Below, piece by piece: positions 54 to 13,048 of a stretch of 20,000 nucleotides of DNA. The translations under genes and the position numbers were made by a program. Numbering within the stretch: position 1 is the first letter of the stretch; every line of letters starts with the position of its first letter. Where the stretch lies: assembly GCA_030591685.1 (NCBI GenBank), contig JAUVAX010000001.1:143140-163139 (forward strand), written 5' to 3'. The notes below the pieces were generated by a model. The model had not been told where the DNA came from. It saw only the letters and a list, made by a program, of their open reading frames with translations, and ran no database searches. The DNA is from Pseudobdellovibrionaceae bacterium. Its GTDB lineage: Bacteria > Bdellovibrionota > Bdellovibrionia > Bdellovibrionales > UBA1609.

Positions 54-1208
54 TCATTTAAAAACCCTTTTAAAGGTCTTTAAAAATTGCTCTTCAGTGA
101 CCGGTACCATATTTGTTTGATGGCAGGGGTCTTTGAAGGCTTTTTGAGACAAGGGGCCTAATTGGTCCTCACTGACTCCATGGTTTTTTAAACCAAACTG
201 AAGGCCTAAGGACTTAAAAAAGCTCGAGCACTGGAGCGCGAGAGTGTCCTGATTATATCCGTATTCATTAAAAATATATTTTACTCTTTGAATTTGCTTT
301 AATTGACCTGAGTTTAATTGGCTGCTTTCAATAAACTCTATACAACCGGGCAAGCAAAGAGCATTGGCTAAACCATGGTGCATTCCGCACTCAGTAGATA
401 AGGGGTGGGCCATTGAATGAATCATACCTAAACCCTTTTGAAAGGCCGTCGCCCCCATGGTGGCTGCAATAAGCATTTTAGCTCTTGCCTGAACATTCGC
501 CCCGTCTTTATATACCTTTGGCAGCTCAGAGAGAACTATACGCAAGCCCTCTAAAGCAATACCATCTGCCATTGGGTGAAACCCCGGGGCCATAAAAGCC
601 TCTAAGTTATGTGTCAATGCATCTAACCCTGTTGCCACCGTTAAGTCGGGAGGAAGACCGATAGTAAAAGAAGGGTCTAAGACTGCAATTTTAGGCAACA
701 TATCAGGATGAAAAAAAATTGTTTTTGTATTTGTAGAGGCCAGTGTGACCACCCCACTTCGACCCACCTCTGACCCCGTCCCTGCTGTTGTTGGGATAGC
801 GTACAACGGGGGCATATCGTTAACGATCAGTCGATCTCCACCGAGAGCGTCATCATAGGGCTCTAAAGGGCCCTCATGGTTTACTCTAAGCATAATAACT
901 TTTGCCACATCAATAGGGCTCCCCCCACCAAGGGCCACTAAGCAATCACAATCATGGTCTTTGTAAACAAGAATACCCCTCTCTACGTCCTCCTCAAGGG
1001 GGTTCGTGTGCGTCTCTGAAAAAATAGTTAACTTAAGTCCCTCTATACCAAATGGACCCTCTAATTTACTGACAAGACCCAGTTTAACAAGTGTTTTATC
1101 TGTAACTACTAAAGGCTTATGGTAACCACTCTTTTTAATAGCACTTGCTAGTGGTTGCAAACAGTCTTCACCATAAAAAATTGTTGTCGGGTAATTAAAT
1201 TGCTGCAT
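54..1208 (-). CDS. Iron-containing (family III) alcohol dehydrogenase
   Basis: Motifs GGGSPID, PTTAGTGSE, DALTHNLE, GMIHSMAH, HHGLANA (NAD binding plus Asp/His metal ligands). AAGGA RBS; starts 8 nt after the GS-like stop. Confidence 0.93.
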   Translation of the reverse strand: MQQFNYPTTIFYGEDCLQPLASAIKKSGYHKPLVVTDKTLVKLGLVSKLEGPFGIEGLKLTIFSETHTNPLEEDVERGILVYKDHDCDCLVALGGGSPIDVAKVIMLRVNHEGPLEPYDDALGGDRLIVNDMPPLYAIPTTAGTGSEVGRSGVVTLASTNTKTIFFHPDMLPKIAVLDPSFTIGLPPDLTVATGLDALTHNLEAFMAPGFHPMADGIALEGLRIVLSELPKVYKDGANVQARAKMLIAATMGATAFQKGLGMIHSMAHPLSTECGMHHGLANALCLPGCIEFIESSQLNSGQLKQIQRVKYIFNEYGYNQDTLALQCSSFFKSLGLQFGLKNHGVSEDQLGPLSQKAFKDPCHQTNMVPVTEEQFLKTFKRVFK

Positions 1209-1216
1209 AGGTATCC

Positions 1217-2593
1217 TTATATAATTTCAAAGTATCTTTGTAACTGCCAGTCGGTGATGGCCTTCTCGTGCTCTCTCACCTCCCACTCTCTTGTGATCAC
1301 GTAGTGTTCAATAAATTTTTCACCAAAAACTTCATAGGCTTTTTTACAAGATTTTAAATTCTCTACACTTTTACTTAAAGAGCTGGGGAGTTGTAACTCA
1401 AAGGGCAAGCTGTCCTGAACCTCATAAGCACTCCCAACAACAGGGTCTGAGAGAGTTAAACCCTCCTCTATACCTAGTAGACCTGCGGCTAACATGGCTG
1501 CGGCCACAAGATAAGGATTTGCGTCAGCAGAACCCACTCTAAACTCAATACGTTGAGATTTTTCGTTGCCGGGTATTACCCTTAATGCTGTTGTTCTATT
1601 TTCAACCCCCCATGTTGCTGCCGTTGGCGCCCAGAACCCCTTAACAAGTCTTGTGTACGAGTTTATGGTGGGTGAGGTTAAAGCTAAAAATGACTTTAAA
1701 TACTTAACCTGACCAGCCGTGTAACTTTTCATAATACTGGTCATGCCATTTTTATCACTGGGGTTAAAGAAAACATTCTCTTTTGTCTTTATATCATATA
1801 GTGACTGATGCATGTGCCCGCTTTGCCCTGGGTAATCCAAGTTCCATCGTGCCATAAACGTGGGTATCATACCTTGTTTTTGAAAAAACACTTTTGCAAA
1901 AGTTTTAAAAACACTAGCTCTGTCAGCACTTTCAAGGGCTTCATCGTACTCAAGCGCCGCCTCCCAAACCCCGGGGCCGGTCTCACAATGAAGACCCTCT
2001 ATGGGAACATTGAGGGCTTCAAAGTAATCCATAAAATCATTAAATAACTCTGAGTATGTAGAGCTTCGAAGGGTTGAGTAACCAAACATACCAGGAGTTA
2101 AAGGGGTTAAATTTCGATAATTTTTATCGCGCACTGATTGAGAGTTTTCTAAAAATAAAAAGAATTCGTATTCAAACGCGAGGTTGGCCCCAAACCCCAT
2201 AGTATTTGCTTTTTCTAATATCTTCTTTAATAAATTACGTGGGCAGACAGGGTGATACTCCTCCCCGTCTGGTGGTAAAAAATCACCTAAGAAAAAGGGG
2301 AGGTTTTCATCGGGTAGGTACCTCTCTGTGGCTCGATCTATTTTAAACGGAGCATCTGGGTAGGCCGTATGCCATCCAGTAAATTTAGCGTTATCATATA
2401 AGGTGTCCGCAACATCCCAGCCGAAAACACAATCGCAAAAAGCACTACTGGAGTTTATAACTGAATCAAATTTTTTCTTTGATATATACTTCCCTCTTAA
2501 CACACCATCAATGTCTGTTATGGCTAGCTTTACCCTAGACAAATCAGAGTTATTAAAGGCTGCATGTTTAAACTTAAAATTATTATTACTCAT
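1217..2593 (-). CDS. Glutamine synthetase-family protein, probably a gamma-glutamyl-amine ligase rather than a true GS
   Basis: DIDGVLRGK, EYEFFLF, HCETGPGVWE, SGHMHQSL, ENRT, RIEFR and ANPYL motifs. GFWAP replaces GYEAP and there is no FDGSS motif. ATGA overlap with the upstream ALDH. Confidence 0.88.
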   Translation of the reverse strand: MSNNNFKFKHAAFNNSDLSRVKLAITDIDGVLRGKYISKKKFDSVINSSSAFCDCVFGWDVADTLYDNAKFTGWHTAYPDAPFKIDRATERYLPDENLPFFLGDFLPPDGEEYHPVCPRNLLKKILEKANTMGFGANLAFEYEFFLFLENSQSVRDKNYRNLTPLTPGMFGYSTLRSSTYSELFNDFMDYFEALNVPIEGLHCETGPGVWEAALEYDEALESADRASVFKTFAKVFFQKQGMIPTFMARWNLDYPGQSGHMHQSLYDIKTKENVFFNPSDKNGMTSIMKSYTAGQVKYLKSFLALTSPTINSYTRLVKGFWAPTAATWGVENRTTALRVIPGNEKSQRIEFRVGSADANPYLVAAAMLAAGLLGIEEGLTLSDPVVGSAYEVQDSLPFELQLPSSLSKSVENLKSCKKAYEVFGEKFIEHYVITREWEVREHEKAITDWQLQRYFEII

Positions 2594-3972
2594 AGTGTGT
2601 ACCCCTCTTTTAATTTCTGCTTAAAGTGAATCGATTTATTTTGTGTTAAATTATAAAATCCAAATTTTGATAAACTTGACCCGCGTCCTGAATTTTTATA
2701 CCCAGTCCATGGTAACTCGGGGTCTAAATAGTCACACCTGTTCATAAATACGGTACCCACTTGAACTTTTTGAGCAAATGTATCCGCTAACTCTCGATTT
2801 TTTGTAAAAATAGCCGCTGTAAGCCCCAAAACAGAATCATTTATTAATTCTAAGGCCGTGTTAATATCAGGAACCTTCATCACCGGCATGATAGGGCCAA
2901 AGTTTTCTTCGTTCATAATTCTCATTTTATGGTTCACATCAACGATAAGTGTGGGGGCAAAAAAAATGGCTTCATTAATTTTAAGCTCTTCACCACCAAC
3001 TAAAACCTTGGCCCCCATTGTTGTAGCCTCATTAACTTGCTCACTCATAACTTTACTAGCACTTGACTTAAATAAGGGCCCCATATTTGTAGTTTTACTC
3101 TTTGGGTCCCCTAATTTATAATCACTCATCAGTGTTTTAGCTTTTAAAACAAATTCATCAAAAACTTTTTCGTGAACATAAACCCTCTCCACCCCACAAC
3201 AAGACTGCCCTGAGTTAAACATGGCTCCATCAACTATAGACTCCACAGCGTCATCCACATCAGCATCATTATTGACAAATACACCGTCTTTACCCCCGAG
3301 CTCTAGGCCTGGGGTTATTAAACTCTCCGCACAGTGACGTAAAATTTGTTTGCCACCATTAACAGAGCCCGTAAACACGACATGGTTGACGCTTCCGGAT
3401 TCTATCACCTGCCCCGTAGTGGCGTGATCTAGTATCACATTTTTAACTAATACATCAAAGGCTCTCTCAAAATGCAAACCCACCTCAGGGGTCTGACCAG
3501 AGTGCTTTAACAGCACGGTGTTGCCCGATAACAGTGCTGGCACTATTGAGTTGACCGCAACAAGTAACGGATAGTTCCAAGCTGCAATCGTAAACACAAC
3601 ACCAAAGGGCTCGTGTGCGATGGCTCTGTAAAAATTAGGTTTTTGTGACACCTCTTTTGTTTTTAAAGTGCTTTCAGAAATACTACACATAAAGCGAGCC
3701 CTATCTAACATTCCATCAACTTCAAAAATGGCTTGATGCTGGGGACGACCCATTTGTAAGCTAATATCACTGGCGATTGTTTGCTTGTTCACTTCAAAGT
3801 AAGTTAAACACTTCAATACATGCGCCACACGCTGCTCACAGGTCTTCATGGACCAGCTCACTTGCTGAATCTTTAATTGTTTCACGGTACTCAGTGCTTG
3901 CTCAGTATTAGAGTACTCATATACTCTATCAACGCAGCCCTCAAAGGGGTTTATAACTTTTAATGTTTTCAT
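2590..3972 (-). CDS. NAD(P)-dependent aldehyde dehydrogenase
   Basis: AWNYP, FTGS, LELGGKD (catalytic Glu), NSGQSCC (catalytic Cys), EENFGP. Start placed at ATG 3972 (GGAG 9 nt upstream); the ORF track start at 3990 is also possible. Confidence 0.93.
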   Translation of the reverse strand: MKTLKVINPFEGCVDRVYEYSNTEQALSTVKQLKIQQVSWSMKTCEQRVAHVLKCLTYFEVNKQTIASDISLQMGRPQHQAIFEVDGMLDRARFMCSISESTLKTKEVSQKPNFYRAIAHEPFGVVFTIAAWNYPLLVAVNSIVPALLSGNTVLLKHSGQTPEVGLHFERAFDVLVKNVILDHATTGQVIESGSVNHVVFTGSVNGGKQILRHCAESLITPGLELGGKDGVFVNNDADVDDAVESIVDGAMFNSGQSCCGVERVYVHEKVFDEFVLKAKTLMSDYKLGDPKSKTTNMGPLFKSSASKVMSEQVNEATTMGAKVLVGGEELKINEAIFFAPTLIVDVNHKMRIMNEENFGPIMPVMKVPDINTALELINDSVLGLTAAIFTKNRELADTFAQKVQVGTVFMNRCDYLDPELPWTGYKNSGRGSSLSKFGFYNLTQNKSIHFKQKLKEGYTL

Positions 3973-3998
3973 GGCTTTGGACTCCGTCATCTATACTT

Positions 3999-4610
3999 TC
4001 AACTGTACTTTACTAAAAACTGCTCTATTATTTCGCCTGAACAACTTAAATACTCTTTTTGAGCTAATACTTTTTGAGCATATTGTTTAGAAGGCTCTAC
4101 AAATTTTATATGCATAGGGTTTACTTGCTTATAAAACTGCTCTTTAACCCCCTCTGGGGTACGACCTCGTTCGCGAGTGTCCCTTTCAAGACGCCTTTTA
4201 AACCTAAGGCCTTCATCACATTGTATAAAAATAGAATCATCAAAAGAGTCTCTTGTATACTCTTGAGATAATAACAAAATCCCATCCACTAAAATAATTT
4301 TTTTGGGCTTAAAAAGGCAGTTATCAAAGCCCCTCGTATGAGTTTTAAAATCATAACTAGGCATCTGTATGGGCTCCCCGCTTTTTAATAACTCTAAGTG
4401 TTCACAGAGCAATTTAAAATCTATGGCCGAAGGGTGATCAAAATTAACTCGGCCCCCGTCTTTGTCAAACGATGCACTTTGGTCATGGTAGTAGTTATCT
4501 TGTAATAAAATAGAGCACTCGCTCTCACCAAAAGCGGAGCATAAACTATTTGCAAAGGTTGTTTTACCCGAACAACTCCCCCCTACTATGGCAATAATAT
4601 TTACATTCAA
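3999..4610 (-). CDS. udk: Uridine/cytidine kinase
   Basis: Walker A GGSCSGKTT, QDNYY, NFDHPSAID, YDFKTHTR, RRLERDTRERGR, FVEPSKQYA. TTG start with AAGGGG RBS. Confidence 0.92.
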   Translation of the reverse strand: MNVNIIAIVGGSCSGKTTFANSLCSAFGESECSILLQDNYYHDQSASFDKDGGRVNFDHPSAIDFKLLCEHLELLKSGEPIQMPSYDFKTHTRGFDNCLFKPKKIILVDGILLLSQEYTRDSFDDSIFIQCDEGLRFKRRLERDTRERGRTPEGVKEQFYKQVNPMHIKFVEPSKQYAQKVLAQKEYLSCSGEIIEQFLVKYS

Positions 4611-4625
4611 ACAAATAACCCCTTA

Positions 4626-5252
4626 TTATTTTGTACTATAAAGTCGGTCGCCTGCGTCACCGATGCCTGGCACTAAGTAACCCTCATCATTAATTTCATT
4701 TTCAACCTCAAGGGTGTAAACCATTATATCTGGATGATATTTTAGTAATTTTTTTAACCCTAACTGTCCGGCAATTAAACATAAAATAGATATTTGACCC
4801 ACCTCATATTGCTTTAATCGATCGACACAAGCAATGACCGTGTCGGCGGTGGCAATTAGTGGGTCTACTAATAATATTTTTTTACCTTTGCAGTCATCTG
4901 GTAATTTAAAATAATACTCCACTGTATTTTTAATAAATTTATCTCTGTAAATACCAATATGACCACTTTTAGCAAAAGGTAGGCTTGATAATACCCCCTC
5001 TAACATTCCGTTACCGGCTCTCATTACTGAAACCACAATAGGAGCTTCAGTGACTTTTTGTACTTTTGCCTCACAAATAGGAGTGTTAACTGTGTGCGTA
5101 CTTGTAGACAGCTCCCTTGTCGCCTCAAACGCTAAGTATCGACTCATTTCATTAACGAGAATTCTGAACTCTGAGGACGAGGTCGTTTCATCTCTAAGTC
5201 GACCGAGTTGATGCTTTAATACAGGGTGGTCGAGCACGCTCACTTGTTTCAT
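4626..5252 (-). CDS. upp: Uracil phosphoribosyltransferase (URC6/Urg2 equivalent)
   Basis: DHP...LRD N-terminus, MRAGNGM, GHIGIYRD, C-terminal GYLVPGIGDAGDRLY. Start is most likely ATG 5252 (MKQVSVLDHP) with AAGGA RBS just after the URC4 stop; the 5363 start overlaps URC4. Confidence 0.92.
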   Translation of the reverse strand: MKQVSVLDHPVLKHQLGRLRDETTSSSEFRILVNEMSRYLAFEATRELSTSTHTVNTPICEAKVQKVTEAPIVVSVMRAGNGMLEGVLSSLPFAKSGHIGIYRDKFIKNTVEYYFKLPDDCKGKKILLVDPLIATADTVIACVDRLKQYEVGQISILCLIAGQLGLKKLLKYHPDIMVYTLEVENEINDEGYLVPGIGDAGDRLYSTK

Positions 5253-5262
5253 ATATACATCC

Positions 5263-6468
5263 TTAAAATACGGTTCCATCACTTTTAATTTTAATCGGAG
5301 GTTCGCCACTGGCCCTAAGGGACTTTGCCACTTTACGTCCAGCACGCCAAGTGCCCCCTTCAAGTATTTTCACTAAAGGGAAGTTCTCTTCGGTGAGTGA
5401 AAGTTTATTTCTAATAATAGTACTAATTTGTTTTAGCAATTGTACCGTCAAGGCCCGCCACTCAATAACAAGGTCACTGCCTGGTGCGTGCAGAACCTCT
5501 AACTGTAATTTATCTTTTACCTCAATAACCTGTTGATCAACAAACAACCCACCATTGCGGTACTCAGCAAGCCCCGTTAATGCGTCTAAATGAGAGACCA
5601 CAAAGTTAGCCTCTTCTAAAGGCTCAATGAGTGAGTACGTGAGCCACTGTGAGAGTTTATGAAAAACAACATAGGACTCTTCTTTTGAGCCCAGTTGGGA
5701 GTGAGACCAGACATCCCCTAAATTAACATTATTATACTGAGTACGGCCGGGCCAAATTTCACCTAAAGCCTTAAGAACTGTGCTTAATAATTCGTTAGCT
5801 CTTATTGTTGTACCAAATTTATTTTGAAGGTAAACCACTAAGTCCCCTAAACGAGCCGACGGGAAGTAAGTATTATTGCTCTCTATCACTTGGCCGAGAG
5901 TTTGTAATAAACGAGCTCGCCCTTCTAGTCCCACGAGGGGGTTATCTTTTGTCACTTGAAAGTGCTTTATTAAGTCTTGTTCTGTAATTGTTTTTAATCT
6001 TTCAGCATCGACCCGTAAAGGTTGGCTTGAGTCACTTGAAAAGCTGCCGCTTTTAAACATTTGTAAACTCGCAACAGCCAACCCCTCGGAACGGCTGAGA
6101 GTTTGCTGAGTTTCAGGGTCGATATAACTCCAGTCAGGGCCTGACCCTGCATCTAATAAAACAGAAATAATAACCAAATCAAACTTTGATTCGGCCCACT
6201 GTAAATTATCGCCTGAAAAATCCTTATATACAGGAGGTATACGATCTACCCCGCCGACTTTAAAGTGCCCCCAGCGTGAGTGGTATGGGATGTCCAAGCT
6301 CGGGTAGTTCTCTTTAATGACATCTATAACATAGTTGGCACAAGTGTCTAATCGGTCCATGTGAAGAGTAAAATGACCCTTGCCCGATTGAATGTAATCA
6401 AATACATTTTCAGTCGTATCATTAACGGCCTTTGAAGAAAGAAGGTAGTCTATAGAAAGCTCACTCAT
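5263..6468 (-). CDS. URC4: URC4/Urg3-family uracil catabolism protein (DUF1688)
   Basis: Family motifs IPYHSRWGHF, SVLLDAGSGPDW, RSEGLAVAS, FHKLSQWLTYSLIEP, LTGLAEYRNGGL, EWRALTV, LEGGTW, IKSDGTVF. Adjacent to URC1 and upp homologues. Confidence 0.9.
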   Translation of the reverse strand: MSELSIDYLLSSKAVNDTTENVFDYIQSGKGHFTLHMDRLDTCANYVIDVIKENYPSLDIPYHSRWGHFKVGGVDRIPPVYKDFSGDNLQWAESKFDLVIISVLLDAGSGPDWSYIDPETQQTLSRSEGLAVASLQMFKSGSFSSDSSQPLRVDAERLKTITEQDLIKHFQVTKDNPLVGLEGRARLLQTLGQVIESNNTYFPSARLGDLVVYLQNKFGTTIRANELLSTVLKALGEIWPGRTQYNNVNLGDVWSHSQLGSKEESYVVFHKLSQWLTYSLIEPLEEANFVVSHLDALTGLAEYRNGGLFVDQQVIEVKDKLQLEVLHAPGSDLVIEWRALTVQLLKQISTIIRNKLSLTEENFPLVKILEGGTWRAGRKVAKSLRASGEPPIKIKSDGTVF

Positions 6469-7734
6469 TTACTCCTCCAGCTTTCGACCTTGAACTTTTC
6501 TTAACTTGGCGTCTGATTTGACTTTGTCCTCTGTAAAATAACCGGCCGCCTTTTTGGCCTCCATTTCAACAAGAGCATCCTCGGGGATCAACTCATTGGG
6601 GATCGAAATGCGGTTTTTAACCTCAATGCCACTTTTAACAATAGCATCGTACTTCATGTTGCTCATTGAGTGTAAGTTATCAATTTTTTTAATATTAAAA
6701 TAATGAAGAGCATCGGGCATAAATTCCTGAAAACGAGCATCTTGCACACCTGCAACGCACTCTGTGCGTTCAAAGTAGGTGGAGGCACTGTCGCCGCCCT
6801 CTTGTCGTTTACGTGCATTATAAACTAAGAACTTAGTCACCTCACCTAAAGCACGCCCCTCTTTTCTGAAATAAATAACAATACCGACCCCGCCCCTTTG
6901 AGCTGTTCGGGCGGCATCTTCTATGCCATAGGTTAAATAAGGTCGGCAGGTGCATATATCTGAACCAAAAACATCTGAACCGTTGCACTCATCATGCACT
7001 CGACATGTTAACTCAACATCAGGGTTTGATAGGTCATTAATATCTCCAAATATATAGGCCGTAGAGCTGCCTATTGGCGGCAAAAGGACTTTTAAATCGG
7101 GGCGTGTTACAAGTTCAGGGAACATACCCCCGGTCTCTTGGTACAAAACCCTTCTTAGCTCTCCCTCTTCTAAGTTAAACCTCTTGGCTATACTAGGTAA
7201 GTACCATACAGGGTCTATAGCCACCTTTGTGACTTTTATGTCTTTAGTGTCAAAAACAACTTTTCCATCAATTGATAATCGACCCTCATCAATGGACTTA
7301 TGGATTTCAGGGATACTTAATCGGGCTTGAGTGACAGCAATAGTGGGCTGAACATTGACCTTCTTGTCGATATAGTCTTTAAATACCTCACTCACATGAG
7401 CCCCCCAGGGGTCCAAAGAAACTATTTTTTCAGGGTCAAACCACGAGGGACCTGGTTTTATTATATTTGTGGGCTCCGTATTTTCTAAGTCCGGCTTATG
7501 ACTTACATCAAACGTACCTGCTGCAATAGAAAGAGCCCTGTACACCGTGTAACTCCCCCCATGACTCCCAATAGCGTTTCTGTTTTCTTTTTCGCTGAGA
7601 GTGGCAATCACGGGCCCCCGTTGATGGGGGTCAGACTCGCCCCAGTGGATAGGGACCACCTCTTTAAAAATCTGATTTGAATGGGATGTTAAAATAACAT
7701 GTGAATTACGTTTCATAAAATCTTTATTTGCCAT
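6469..7734 (-). CDS. URC1: URC1/Urg1-type GTP cyclohydrolase II-like protein (N-terminal extension plus GCH II domain)
   Basis: N-terminal RGPVIAT/RNAIGSHGGSY region; Zn motif RVHDECNGSDVFGSDICTC, KEGRALGEVTK and AKKAAGYF typical of URC1-like proteins. At 421 aa it is much longer than a standalone RibA. Confidence 0.9.
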   Translation of the reverse strand: MANKDFMKRNSHVILTSHSNQIFKEVVPIHWGESDPHQRGPVIATLSEKENRNAIGSHGGSYTVYRALSIAAGTFDVSHKPDLENTEPTNIIKPGPSWFDPEKIVSLDPWGAHVSEVFKDYIDKKVNVQPTIAVTQARLSIPEIHKSIDEGRLSIDGKVVFDTKDIKVTKVAIDPVWYLPSIAKRFNLEEGELRRVLYQETGGMFPELVTRPDLKVLLPPIGSSTAYIFGDINDLSNPDVELTCRVHDECNGSDVFGSDICTCRPYLTYGIEDAARTAQRGGVGIVIYFRKEGRALGEVTKFLVYNARKRQEGGDSASTYFERTECVAGVQDARFQEFMPDALHYFNIKKIDNLHSMSNMKYDAIVKSGIEVKNRISIPNELIPEDALVEMEAKKAAGYFTEDKVKSDAKLRKVQGRKLEE

Positions 7735-7747
7735 TAACTACCCTCAT

Positions 7748-9226
7748 CTAAGACATCCAATTGTCATCTTTTTGTTTTTGCCATTTACAGGTTACTTTTT
7801 TTAAGTCGGACCAAAAGTTTAAACTTGCAGGCCCCGTAATATCTCCGTGTCCAAACTTAGATTCATTCATCCCCCCGAAAGAAAAGGGCTCTCTAGGGAC
7901 AGGGACTCCAATGTTCACCCCTACCATCGCAGACTTTGCATTTGAAATTACTTTTTGAGCAAAGTGACCACTGTTTGTAAACACAGAGCACGCGTTGCCG
8001 TAAGGGTTAGAGTTTTCGATTTCTAAAGCCTCTGTAATCGTCTTACAGGGTACTATAGTTAGAATAGGGCCAAACAATTCATTTTTAACAGCTTCGCTCT
8101 CAGGCTTTAAACCGGTGAGTATAGTTGGGCCTATCCAGTACCCCTCTTTAAATATTTCTGGCACTTTTGGGTTACGACCATCGACCAAAATCTGAGCCCC
8201 TTCGTATATGGCACGATCAATGGCTGCATTTAAAAAATCAACTTGTTGTTTTGTGATTATTGCTCCCATGCCATCGCCTATTTTTGTTGCCTCAGCCACG
8301 TGTTTAATTTGCTGGATATGCCGATCAACATCCCCCACAGCCAATAGCACACTAGCAGCCATGCAGCGCTGTCCAGCGCATCCGGTAAAAGAATCACTAA
8401 TCCCCTGACCAGCCAGTTCAACATCTGCATCCGGAAGGAGCACAATATGATTTTTGGCGCCGCCTAAGGCTAAAGCTCTTTTACCATGATTTGAGGCTCT
8501 CTTGTAAACAGCCTTTGCCACTCTTGAAGAGCCAACAAACCCGATGGCCTTTATATCTGTGTGATCAATAATAAACTCTACTGTTTCTTGCCCCCCCTGA
8601 AGCACACTAAATACTCCGCTGGGGAGACCTGCTTTATTGAGGGCGTTTGCAATAAATTTTGATGTTAAAGGGGTTTTCTCAGAGGGCTTCCACATATAAG
8701 CATTACCCAAGACGAGTGCTATAGGCAAAGTCCACATCACCACCATTGCTGGAAAATTAAAAGGGGTCACACTGGCTACCACACCCAGAGGTTCTCGAAT
8801 ATACTCACAGGTCACACCTCTTGAGACTTCCATTTTTCCGCCCTGATCAGAGTTCTGCAGGCTCAAGGCGTACTCTAAAACCTCAATGCCTTTCATTAAA
8901 CCCGCCTTGGCCTCGGTAAAAGTTTTACCGCTTTCTAAAGCCACTATTTTTGAAATTTCATCGGCTTCACTCAGCAAAATACTACGAAATTTAAACAACA
9001 CCTGTGTCCGCTCTTTTAATGGCGTTTTACCCCACAAGGCCTGCGCTGATTTGGCGCTCTTTACGGCGTTGTTAATGTCTTCAAGCGTTGACTCATGGCT
9101 TACGCCAATGACTTTACCAAAATAGGGAGACTCAATGGTAAACTCAAGCCCCTTTGGCTTTACCCATGAACCGGCAATGAAATTATCAATTTTATGTGGT
9201 TGATCTGGCAGCTCTGTTAATGTCAA
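7748..9226 (-). CDS. mmsA: CoA-acylating (methyl)malonate-semialdehyde dehydrogenase
   Basis: TPFNFPAMV, KPSEKTP, FVGSS, GGAKNH, GCAGQRCMA, ELFGP, GVNIGVPVP, FSFGG. Start is probably TTG 9226 (GAGGA RBS 8 nt upstream); GTG 9241 is the alternative. Confidence 0.9.
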   Translation of the reverse strand: MTLTELPDQPHKIDNFIAGSWVKPKGLEFTIESPYFGKVIGVSHESTLEDINNAVKSAKSAQALWGKTPLKERTQVLFKFRSILLSEADEISKIVALESGKTFTEAKAGLMKGIEVLEYALSLQNSDQGGKMEVSRGVTCEYIREPLGVVASVTPFNFPAMVVMWTLPIALVLGNAYMWKPSEKTPLTSKFIANALNKAGLPSGVFSVLQGGQETVEFIIDHTDIKAIGFVGSSRVAKAVYKRASNHGKRALALGGAKNHIVLLPDADVELAGQGISDSFTGCAGQRCMAASVLLAVGDVDRHIQQIKHVAEATKIGDGMGAIITKQQVDFLNAAIDRAIYEGAQILVDGRNPKVPEIFKEGYWIGPTILTGLKPESEAVKNELFGPILTIVPCKTITEALEIENSNPYGNACSVFTNSGHFAQKVISNAKSAMVGVNIGVPVPREPFSFGGMNESKFGHGDITGPASLNFWSDLKKVTCKWQKQKDDNWMS

Positions 9227-9256
9227 TTCTCTAGTCCTCACTTAAGGTATTTACTA

Positions 9257-9711: not shown

Positions 9712-9741
9712 AGAACTACAGCGAATTCTATGGAGAATAAG

Positions 9742-10620
9742 ATGAACACCATTTTGCTACCTCAAGATAACCATAAAGATTTTGAGCATGTAAAAAATGC
9801 CATTGAAAGGCAAAATATAATCACCACCTCTGGTGATGAAAAGGATACGTTTTCAAAAGCGGATCATCAAAAATACGATGCCATTTCTATCTTTTTTGAT
9901 GACGAGGTGAAGAAGGTCTTTAAGTTGGTAGATACCATTCGAAAGAGTCGCTTCAATTACACAACCCCCATTCTTTTATTTACAGATAATTTTGATGAAG
10001 CGGCTCAGGTTTTCACCGCTATTAAAAACTTTCATCTCATTGACTGTGATGGAAGCGCTGAACATCTGATTCAGAAAATAAACACGGCTCTTAAAGGCCC
10101 TCATTCCGAAAGAAAAAAAATAAGTCTCGACGCTTCTATAATAAATATTTTTGCAAAAGCCACGATAAACACTTTGGATGTCATGGGAAACCTTAGAAAC
10201 ATAGAACATCAAAAACCTTTTTTATATGAAGGTGACCTCCCCTTTGGGATAGATGTTTCAGGGTTTGCCGCTATAAATTCGGATCACTTTAAAGGATTTT
10301 TATCCTTAAACCTGCCCGAGCAAACCTTACTCAAACTCGCAGAGACCATGTTGAATACAGAGTATGATGAAATCAATGATGAAATCAACGATATGGCCAG
10401 TGAACTTAACAATGTCATTTATGGACAGGCTAAAAAACAGTTTTCACAACTAGGGTTTAACTTACCCCGACTGATCCCCATTATTGTAAAGGGCGAAGAG
10501 ACCATTGTGAGGTCTCTATCTAGTGGACCCTCAATAGTTATACCCTTCACCTCAAGCGCTGGTCCGTTTTTAGTTTCGGTATCCTTAGGCCAACTAGAAA
10601 GGCCCCCTAAAGTAGGCTGA
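9742..10620 (+). CDS. cheX: Degenerate receiver domain fused to a CheX-family chemotaxis phosphatase
   Basis: C-terminal CheX signature (DVSGFAAINS..FKGFLSLNL, ASELNNVIYGQAK with ExxN, VIPFTSSAGPF). N-terminal REC-like pattern (KYDAI, TPILLFT). ATG 9742 has a GGAG RBS; 9730 is the alternative start. Confidence 0.8.
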   Translation: MNTILLPQDNHKDFEHVKNAIERQNIITTSGDEKDTFSKADHQKYDAISIFFDDEVKKVFKLVDTIRKSRFNYTTPILLFTDNFDEAAQVFTAIKNFHLIDCDGSAEHLIQKINTALKGPHSERKKISLDASIINIFAKATINTLDVMGNLRNIEHQKPFLYEGDLPFGIDVSGFAAINSDHFKGFLSLNLPEQTLLKLAETMLNTEYDEINDEINDMASELNNVIYGQAKKQFSQLGFNLPRLIPIIVKGEETIVRSLSSGPSIVIPFTSSAGPFLVSVSLGQLERPPKVG

Positions 10621-11395: not shown

Positions 11396-13048
11396 ATGAA
11401 ATCAGTATTATACACCTTTATATTTTTCAGTGTCTTGGCCACTTATACCGCCGTCGCTGAAAGCGTTGAAAGAAACGTCAAACAGGGAACAAACCTCATT
11501 GTACTTGATGGGTCCAAGGTTTGGGCTCGCTCTAAAAGGGACTTTCGAGAGTCCCCTGACAAAAACTCTATTTTGATTAATGACAACACTGAGTTAGAAA
11601 TTTATTATGAACGTAAGCTTAATAGTGGAGCCAAGCACCTATATGTTCGCATTTTATCTGGTCCGCATAAGGGGAAAATGCGTTGGGTTTACTTTCCAAA
11701 AGCTAATAAAAATTATCACCTTAAAATCAGTCAGCAATTAATACCAGAACAAGATGTAAAAAAGGCGGACACTCTCTCTGAGGCCACACATGTCACAGTG
11801 ACAAAGCCAACCTCTGACCCAAAAGCAGAGCTGCCCCTCATGAAAGCCACTCGTGAAAATGAATTTATAGGTAAAACGGCCTTCTCAGACTTTAACGTCA
11901 CAACAAACACTACAGCACTCCCAAAAGATACCACAGATGCTCAAGTTAATAATGCTCTTCAAAGAACAAGTAAACTCCTCTCCACAGGAGTAAAGGGCTC
12001 TTTAAATAGCAGCCTTCAGCATTTACACGGCCGTGACTGCCAAGACAAAGGTAGTTTAGAGCACAATGACTGCAAAATTGGAGTGAATGACTACCTTGAT
12101 GGGCGCCTTGAGCACGTGAGCCCCTCTCCTCCAGTAAACCTTACTAACCCTAAAAGCCAGCTCCCCCTTGAATGTATCAAGGCCGGCATGACGGGGTTTG
12201 ATACTCTGAATAATAGCAACTATGCCGTATGCAATGACAGTACAAGTAAGCCTAGTTTTTATATCACTGACCCCAAAAACCCTGGGCATCCTCGAGAAAC
12301 CGAAAAACCATGTGCCTCTAATAAATTAGCCTTTAAAGTTCACACTTCATTCACCCATATTGCCGACTGCTACGGGATAGACGCAAAAACAATGGTCCCC
12401 TTAATGATGGCTGAAAGTGGGTTTCATGTAAATGCTGTCAGCCCCTCAAACTGTGCTGGGCCCTTTCAGCTCTGTGGTGGGAAGGCTACAATTAAAGACG
12501 TCAATCAGCGTTTTTATACAAAAATGATGAGCCGATTTAAAGACTCTAAGAAGGCCTCGTGCCACTGGATCGCTAAATCTGTAGAGACACCCATGAACCA
12601 TAGAAGCTCAAAATCCTGTGAGCGAATTGGGCAAAAAGTAAATGGGAAATGGGTCTACGACCCCACTCGTAATTTAGTTTACGGGACCGAATCCTTTAAA
12701 CAAAACCTAATGACTACAAAAACTCGATTAGGGCTCACTAAAAGGTTTAGGGGTTTACCACCTGAAGAGCAATCAAAAATTTCAAATACCATTGCCCTCT
12801 GGGCAAACAACACAGGGCCCGGTATTATTAGTTTTGCTCAGAAAATATTTATGAGACATAAATACACCTCCTACAGTAATTTTATTTCAACGCTTAAAAG
12901 ACGTTTAAAAACATCCTTTCCTGGAGATAGCAAGCGAAAGCTTGAAGTCTCAAACTTTATCAACCTTATGAGCAGTGGGGTGAAATCACTTAATAAAAAT
13001 TTACCTGACCACGTGAACCCTAAAGACTGTGGATGGAGTGTCAAGTGA
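11396..13048 (+). CDS. Secreted Cys-rich lytic transglycosylase (SLT domain) with an N-terminal SH3-like domain
   Basis: Signal peptide MKSVLYTFIFFSVLATYTAVA; SLT motif I MMAESGFHVNAVS (catalytic Glu), motif II AGPFQL, motif III-like ALWANNTGPG; SH3b-like segment ending GPHKGKMRWVY; 11 Cys. Confidence 0.75.
   Translation: MKSVLYTFIFFSVLATYTAVAESVERNVKQGTNLIVLDGSKVWARSKRDFRESPDKNSILINDNTELEIYYERKLNSGAKHLYVRILSGPHKGKMRWVYFPKANKNYHLKISQQLIPEQDVKKADTLSEATHVTVTKPTSDPKAELPLMKATRENEFIGKTAFSDFNVTTNTTALPKDTTDAQVNNALQRTSKLLSTGVKGSLNSSLQHLHGRDCQDKGSLEHNDCKIGVNDYLDGRLEHVSPSPPVNLTNPKSQLPLECIKAGMTGFDTLNNSNYAVCNDSTSKPSFYITDPKNPGHPRETEKPCASNKLAFKVHTSFTHIADCYGIDAKTMVPLMMAESGFHVNAVSPSNCAGPFQLCGGKATIKDVNQRFYTKMMSRFKDSKKASCHWIAKSVETPMNHRSSKSCERIGQKVNGKWVYDPTRNLVYGTESFKQNLMTTKTRLGLTKRFRGLPPEEQSKISNTIALWANNTGPGIISFAQKIFMRHKYTSYSNFISTLKRRLKTSFPGDSKRKLEVSNFINLMSSGVKSLNKNLPDHVNPKDCGWSVK

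Follow-up and report, generated by a model that had tools for sequence, protein, structure and literature searches.

A gamma-glutamylation cassette behind a uracil-breakdown operon in a Pseudobdellovibrionaceae bacterium: probably a known kind of pathway and not a new URC branch

In the genome of a Pseudobdellovibrionaceae bacterium (GCA_030591685.1), genes for a glutamine synthetase (GS)-like protein, an aldehyde dehydrogenase (ALDH), and an iron-containing alcohol dehydrogenase (Fe-ADH) lie directly behind an operon for uracil breakdown (URC). The locus was analyzed in a stretch of 20,000 nucleotides (contig JAUVAX010000001.1, positions 143,140 to 163,139; denoted the window) and raises the question of whether the three genes belong to an undescribed branch of pyrimidine catabolism, as a first-pass annotation had proposed, or to a pathway of their own. 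Probably, a known kind of pathway lies here beside a uracil-breakdown operon, and not a new URC branch. At a probability of about 0.65, a four-gene cassette converts ethanolamine to glycine through gamma-glutamyl intermediates by means of an uncharacterized ligase branch, both the substrate and the reactions being predictions.

The minus strand carries one tightly packed run of eight genes within the window, from a (methyl)malonate-semialdehyde dehydrogenase (MSDH)-like gene to the Fe-ADH gene, with gaps of 13, 0, 10, 15, 8, -4, and 8 nt in the order MSDH-URC1-URC4-upp-udk-ALDH-GS-FeADH. The ALDH gene follows udk after 8 nt and overlaps the GS-like gene by an ATGA, and another 8 nt separate the latter from the Fe-ADH gene. 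Coordinates, domains, and motifs bore out the earlier description of ALDH, GS-like protein (with GFWAP at 1625-1639 and without FDGSS), and Fe-ADH as parts of one run. As an account of the complete module it fell short, since the run extends past the window edge into a fourth gene. This one, for a class I glutamine amidotransferase (GATase), shares 4 nt with the Fe-ADH gene at its stop and is situated almost completely outside the window. The cassette comprises the following features:

-674 to 57 of the window (G000:C47:142465-143196; its 5' end is 1 to 57 in the window), minus strand: class I GATase, 243 amino acids, PF00117 (E 1.6e-14)
54 to 1208, minus strand: Fe-ADH, 384 amino acids, PF00465 and PF25137
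1217 to 2593, minus strand: GS-like protein, candidate gamma-glutamyl-amine ligase, 458 amino acids, PF00120 only
1625 to 1639, minus strand: GFWAP flap motif (residues 319-323), Trp replacing the flap Glu of type I GS; GFEAP occupies these columns in the genome's own GlnA
2590 to 3990, minus strand: ALDH, 466 amino acids, PF00171

In the proposed route, the ligase would join glutamate and ethanolamine with ATP to gamma-glutamylethanolamide, the Fe-ADH would oxidize this to the aldehyde, and the ALDH would convert the aldehyde to gamma-glutamylglycine, from which the GATase would release glycine and recycle glutamate. Such a pathway has been reported from Phaeobacter, where a phosphoethanolamine-induced operon encodes an ethanolamine gamma-glutamylase, two dehydrogenases, a gamma-glutamylglycine amidohydrolase, and the ethanolamine-binding EtoX, and related genes were reported to be functional in Chromohalobacter salexigens as well as in Agrobacterium tumefaciens (PMC10132767). 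The protein families given for the ethanolamine route are PF00120, PF00465, PF00171, and PF05013 (PMC9397018).

The sequence of the GS-like protein supports its assignment as a gamma-glutamyl ligase of a protect-then-oxidise route that is not a GS. It scores below every curated cut-off that it matched, i.e. GlnA (TIGR00653, 216 of 429 bits), type III GS (191 of 470), and the PuuA type (NF045547, 177 of 650). Trp321 aligns with the flap Glu column of the genome's own GlnA, and FDGSS was absent in a motif check of the translation, so that the flap glutamate (E327) and the Asp50 loop, by which type I GlnA handles ammonium, are not found in it. The ligand residues for metal and substrate (E141, E143, E204, E211, H260, H262, R333, R338, R348, E350, and R352) are invariant among 47 homologues. 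The predicted structure shows a GS fold (pLDDT 88.8), and a fold search gave Z 46.0 and 33% identity to Csal_0679 (5DM3); with tied top rows, these searches confirm the GS fold alone and say nothing on the substrate. The protein hence combines the GS fold and the retained metal/glutamate/ATP ligands with the loss of the ammonium residues, as in GS-like gamma-glutamyl-amine ligases. Trp is also reported at the flap position of PauA7, and Phe (F331) at that of GlnA4 (PMC6529630). A separate true glnA exists elsewhere in the genome (511 bits, above cut-off). Together with the flap Trp and a candidate hydrolase closing the cycle, this upheld the earlier view of the protein as a non-GS ligase. Two GlnA-like pieces at contig ends (G000:C1:1-672 and C20:7091-8247) overlap in sequence range and represent either an assembly-split gene or two copies.

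The ligase branch is characterized by the motifs FCxVxGWD, TGWHT, and GxWAP (FCDCVFGWD at residues 52-60 of the window protein). Its nearest named loci (65-69% identity) belong mostly to Bdellovibrionales or Bdellovibrionota, and their titles suggest a predatory lifestyle of the source organism.

The Fe-ADH reaches no NCBIfam cut-off but carries the motifs GGGS, DALTHNLE, HSMAHP, and HHGLAN. It is 37-39% identical to the Fe-ADHs of eto-type ethanolamine operons (L248, L249, and L254, whose assignment is based on gene order and annotation and involved no comparison with the proteins of Phaeobacter) and is the sole match for these in the genome; it is a candidate gamma-glutamylethanolamide dehydrogenase. 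The ALDH, with LELGGKD and GQSC, is 39-42% identical to the eto-type ALDHs, compared with 24-31% for the genome's other ALDHs, and is likewise a candidate, for gamma-glutamyl-aminoacetaldehyde dehydrogenase. Its translation may actually begin at the Met at 3972, which has a GGAG 9 nt upstream. Both dehydrogenases are thus the genome's best matches to the enzymes of eto-type operons. The GATase scores 204 bits with its nearest NCBIfam model (NF004212/PRK05665), below the cut-off of 309, possesses the motifs GICFGHQ (Cys97) and HPE, comes next after the module at 24 of 80 related loci, and is a candidate gamma-glutamyl-glycine hydrolase. With this gene found, a cycle of ligase, two dehydrogenases, and hydrolase would be complete. 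In sum, a ligase, an alcohol dehydrogenase, an ALDH, and a candidate gamma-glutamyl hydrolase are clustered, and the module is conserved. Neighbor clustering of the window's ligase sub-branch on the coding strand revealed no recurring fifth gene.

A second version of the cassette occurs in the phylum (L225, L227, L235, L238, and L299-L320), with the order (Eat)-GS-FeADH-Peptidase C26-ALDH, where a PuuD-type hydrolase replaces the PRK05665-type GATase. In five Oleiphilaceae loci (L048, L067, L071, L072, and L076), a ThrB-type homoserine kinase gene follows the ligase or the module (NF003558 above cut-off in L048). On a Rhizobium leguminosarum plasmid (L246), a ligase of the same clade and an ALDH are accompanied by a 2-aminoethylphosphonate transaminase, a desaturase, a GMC oxidoreductase, and a C26 hydrolase, possibly a case of biosynthetic reuse.

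Among known systems, the proteobacterial ethanolamine operons (C. salexigens Csal_0678/0679, A. tumefaciens C58, and Phaeobacter sp. MED193 MED193_10021-10056) likewise combine a GS-like ligase, an ALDH, an Fe-ADH, and a hydrolase (PMC10132767), and one of the two solved structures that match the window ligase best by sequence is Csal_0679 (5DM3). The identities of the window's ALDH and Fe-ADH given above refer to operons of this gene order. The ligases differ in their motifs (FCDCVFGWD/GFWAP in the window, CNYLLATD/GTFAP in the eto type), and the three eto-type ligases form a clade separate from that of the window ligase. Instead of the proteobacterial PF05013 hydrolase, for which tblastn with two PF05013-type queries found no match in the genome, a class I GATase is present; the window cassette lacks both RpiR and a transporter, and its order is ALDH-GS-FeADH-GATase. 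In Streptomyces coelicolor, the GlnA4 cluster (SCO1611-SCO1615) encodes a gamma-glutamylethanolamide synthetase with the aromatic flap residue F331 and, likewise, a predicted dehydrogenase, ALDH, and hydrolase, yielding glycine and glutamate (PMC6529630). Judged by the published description and not by alignment, the window system differs in its flap Trp and in its alcohol dehydrogenase, which is iron-containing. SCO1611 is presumably a short-chain dehydrogenase. The polyamine (PuuA/PauA) and isopropylamine (IpuC) routes follow the same logic of protection, oxidation, and hydrolysis, and include the Trp flap of PauA7 (PMC6529630). The window ligase is 36-38% identical to Paenarthrobacter proteins annotated as IpuC. 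Its cassette contains neither a PuuB-type amine oxidase nor a P450, and with 177 bits against the NF045547 cut-off of 650 and no linked amine oxidase the protein does not qualify as PuuA.

Several lines of evidence point to ethanolamine as the substrate. In 18 of 36 phylum loci (14/29 and 4/7), an Eat-like (ethanolamine) permease gene lies directly upstream of ligases of the same clade (47-53% identity, common pocket motifs), and the same holds for 6 of the 80 wider loci. Ten of 13 tested permeases score above the TIGR00908 cut-off, and the other three reach 329-357 of 382 bits, two of them as partial translations. Furthermore, a TRAP binding protein at one related locus (L077) is 85% identical to that of L254, an operon with the eto gene order. 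In a FastTree phylogeny of 121 sequences, rooted on the partial own GlnA, the window's sub-branch of 26 members lies between two branches, of 27 and 48 members, into which the transporter-linked ones fall. Both the sub-branch and the 21 transporter-linked members keep C53, G58, W59, D60, D63, W74, G168, G171, Y172, S173, R176, H202, and W321 without exception. The genome has no match to eutB, three matches to GDPD, and matches to glycine decarboxylase.

Other observations weigh against ethanolamine. Neither Eat nor EtoX was found near any of the 26 sub-branch members, Eat is absent from 11 further second-branch loci of the same order, no permease in the genome exceeds the TIGR00908 cut-off, and the window locus itself has no transporter gene. 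Position 55 is Cys in 25 of 26 sub-branch members and Val in all 21 Eat-linked ones, and position 318 is mostly Lys in the sub-branch, as opposed to Glu/Pro/Asp in the Eat-linked members. Remoter clade members (44-47% identity) lie among genes for other amines, i.e. polyamine ABC transporters, aminotransferases, and a deacetylase. The ligase shares only 32-33% identity with Csal_0679 and the eto-type ligases, from which it differs in clade and pocket motifs as described, and the hydrolase is a GATase, whereas the proteobacterial route in the literature uses a PF05013 enzyme. A literature search, covering mostly non-subscription papers without supplements, gave no characterized member of the ligase branch. 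Because of the missing transporter in the sub-branch, the residue differences, the other-amine neighbors, and the lack of a characterized member, the substrate assignment stays at the probability of about 0.65.

These points bear on the alternative that survives best, an independent cassette of the same chemistry, unrelated to URC, whose substrate would be a different small amine or amino alcohol, e.g. 1-amino-2-propanol, serinol, or a longer amino alcohol. The missing ethanolamine transporter, the two sub-branch-specific residues, which lie near pocket loops, and the company kept by the wider clade would suit it. It is nevertheless considered unlikely, given that most pocket motif positions are invariant between the sub-branch and the 21 Eat/EtoX-linked members, that the two dehydrogenases belong to the eto type, and that the transporter-linked members bracket the sub-branch in the tree.

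The relation of the cassette to the URC genes was assessed from the genes in front of it and from their distribution. The upstream part of the run consists of:

3999 to 4610, minus strand: uridine kinase gene udk, final gene of the conserved URC operon, NF004018 above cut-off; follows upp in relatives
4626 to 5252, minus strand: uracil phosphoribosyltransferase gene upp/URC6, TIGR01091 and NF001097 above cut-off
5263 to 6468, minus strand: URC4 (DUF1688), PF07958 (E 1.6e-142)
6469 to 7734, minus strand: URC1, GTP cyclohydrolase II-like, PF12471 and PF00925, NF005536 above cut-off
7748 to 9241, minus strand: CoA-acylating (methyl)malonate-semialdehyde dehydrogenase (MSDH-like), first gene of the URC operon, TIGR01722 447.8 bits (cut-off 448.5)

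Compared with the URC system of Lachancea kluyveri (URC1/4/6), these five genes form the standard bacterial operon MSDH-URC1-URC4-upp-udk, found in the same order in many relatives. It is common in the phylum (109 of 300 genomes) and in the order (148 of 383), and MSDH precedes URC1 in many relatives without the module. No gamma-glutamylation step is described in the accessible text on URC (PMC7530994), and the URC operons of relatives carry none. In the favored reading, the URC genes (MSDH, URC1, URC4, upp, and udk) work without the cassette. URC4 also shows a weak match, below cut-off, to Q_salvage (PF10343, E 6e-5), a hint that it may act as an N-glycosylase on the phosphoribosyl-ureido product. 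Since neither urease nor urea carboxylase was found above cut-off in the genome, URC may here serve the recovery of carbon/ribose more than of nitrogen.

Four overlapping co-occurrence tests addressed the linkage. On the ligase side, the best 80 of 302 relatives in GTDB genomes were used; as these include close-kin clusters (Inquilinus, Photobacterium), they do not count as 80 independent cases. No match to URC1, URC4, upp, or udk was found in any of the 80 loci; the sequence upstream of the module extends for at least 3 kb in 70 of them and for at least 8 kb in 51. The module, with its gene content and motifs, is conserved across genomes independently of URC: in these loci Fe-ADH is kept in 60, ALDH in 54, and GATase in 24. 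URC1 occurs in 6 of the 24 genomes behind the nearest ligase loci, and the ligase is absent from all six URC regions fetched from these. On the URC side, none of the best 80 of at least 556 URC1 relatives in metagenomes has the ligase nearby (36 loci are informative, reaching at least 5.3 kb downstream of URC1; among the 15 with udk, 9 reach at least 4 kb past it). It is also absent from 28 more URC regions taken from genomes (13 + 6 + 9), several of them short; 30 phylum URC1 loci with flanks of only 1.5 kb were excluded from the linkage counts. The gene after udk varies in relatives, e.g. a PutA-like protein (a 1378-amino-acid gene product in L087, L088, and L234) or a small TadA-like deaminase of 157-169 amino acids (L283, L284, and L285; below cut-off), possibly a guanine deaminase.

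In the phylum sample of 300 genomes, URC1 occurs in 109, the ligase clade in 47, and the two together in 23. URC1 is present in 23 of 47 ligase genomes and in 86 of 253 others (Fisher p 0.068; p 0.58 without one family, kin not being independent). In the 23 double-positive genomes, the two lie on different contigs in 19, 128-660 kb apart in three, and 9.4 kb apart in one (G284). There the module belongs to another sub-branch, comes with an ethanolamine permease of its own, and stands ~4.3 kb from MSDH, with opposite-strand open reading frames in between; the rough chance of one near case in 23 is 13%. In the order sample, which overlaps with that of the phylum, URC4 occurs in 148 of 383 genomes, the ligase in 31, and both in 16 (p 0.13), so that the ligase is missing from 132 of 148 URC4 genomes, and URC4 from 15 of 31 ligase genomes. 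None of the 16 is linked (14 on different contigs, two at distances of 460 and 660 kb). Contig breaks could hide linkage in a few genomes, notably in the one with the closest ligase of the order (G588, 73% identity), where both contigs are cut. A literature search of the scope given above returned no paper linking URC and GS.

The URC adjacency is real in the source genome and not conserved, and by neither linkage nor co-occurrence with URC1/URC4 does the ligase behave as a URC component. With high confidence, the cassette encodes a gamma-glutamylation pathway that does not depend on URC. A second suggestion of the first-pass annotation, a separate amine pathway converging on malonate semialdehyde, thus held in its first half; the convergence did not, as the neighbors point to ethanolamine and glycine.

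In its explicit form, this convergence would lead from 3-aminopropanol via gamma-glutamyl-beta-alanine and beta-alanine to malonate semialdehyde for the operon's MSDH. An MSDH gene is indeed part of the same run, the chemistry suits an alcohol dehydrogenase and an ALDH, and Pseudomonas aeruginosa is reported to oxidize 3-aminopropanal to beta-alanine, which it converts further to acetyl-CoA (PMC9397018). The route is improbable all the same, because the run lacks an aminotransferase (the two class III enzymes of the genome are HemL and an unassigned ArgD/GabT-like protein, which may or may not accept beta-alanine) and because no MSDH orthologue occurs near the 80 ligase loci, which show only ALDH matches of 25-29% identity, MSDH traveling with URC1 instead.

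A recruitment into the URC operon confined to the source lineage, with the cassette acting on a ring-opening amine or on a C3 amine feeding MSDH, is slightly less credible still; as a general rule, recruitment is excluded by the co-occurrence data. UTP cyclohydrolase I, the subject of a 2021 study by Zhang et al., reportedly opens UTP to a phosphoribosyl-ureidoacrylate, and here, too, no free amine in need of protection is named. The idea that the module glutamylates and oxidizes an amine released by URC ring opening, and so forms a new branch of pyrimidine catabolism, could draw on the 8-nt gap after udk without a terminator-like match, the module of G284 at 9.4 kb upstream of URC1, the weak genome-level excess (p 0.068), and the broken contigs of G588. 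It was rejected and has very little left in its favor: linkage is 0/80, 0/80, and 0/16, most URC4 genomes do without the ligase and about half of the ligase genomes without URC4, the excess vanishes without one family, the G284 module is of another sub-branch with its own permease, and among the URC products described for yeast (3-hydroxypropionate, ribosylurea, and urea; PMC7530994), no free primary amine is named. A lack of URC linkage elsewhere, which the first-pass annotation had itself named as refuting, is what the counts gave, with one non-operonic near case among the 23 phylum genomes. Least probable of all, an ordinary ammonia-dependent GS was rejected despite the GS fold, the complete metal ligands, and the database label 'glutamine synthetase' of the relatives, in view of the flap Trp (as in PauA7; PMC6529630), the absent FDGSS, a GlnA score of 216 bits (cut-off 429), the genome's own glnA at 511 bits, and the constant company of dehydrogenases and hydrolase.

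Under the ethanolamine reading, a self-contained ALDH-GS-FeADH-GATase unit would have ended up immediately after the URC operon in the source genome, the simplest account being a rearrangement that placed one catabolic cassette after another. All genes have a GC content of 0.37-0.44 (genome 0.40), with no sign of recent import of the module. The 8-nt gap between udk and ALDH, together with the lack of a terminator-like match at the junction, suggests a single transcript for cassette and URC operon. Counts in the promoter/terminator scan were not above those of shuffles (40 vs. 31.9 +/- 6.1 and 17 vs. 12.7 +/- 4.1), and the scan is therefore of no use for operon limits.

A gene of the Scramblase family (PF03803, E 1.3e-47; -1367 to -744 of the window, L001:2633-3256, minus strand) lies 69 nt past the GATase gene in the same direction, a lipid-related neighbor of the putative ethanolamine cassette that does not recur in the neighbor clusters of related loci. 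Similar-looking receiver-like/CheX proteins flank the region (9730 to 10620, plus strand, with a PF13690 match; -6022 to -5153, minus strand), and a secreted-looking protein of 550 amino acids is encoded at 11396 to 13048 (plus strand; weak SLT transglycosylase match, E 5e-6).

The cassette thus represents a widespread GS-like branch that is labeled 'glutamine synthetase' in databases and is probably involved in B12-independent ethanolamine breakdown, with a ligase and a hydrolase different from those of the studied versions. Assigning the function of the ligase would re-annotate thousands of proteins (of 8000 candidates scored, 7997 match at E <= 1e-50, and not all of these belong to the clade). 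Joint expression of the cassette and the URC genes during prey digestion is possible. If the ethanolamine assignment is true, a Bdellovibrionales-type cell might be able to use the head groups of prey phosphatidylethanolamine, by genes located beside those that burn uracil.

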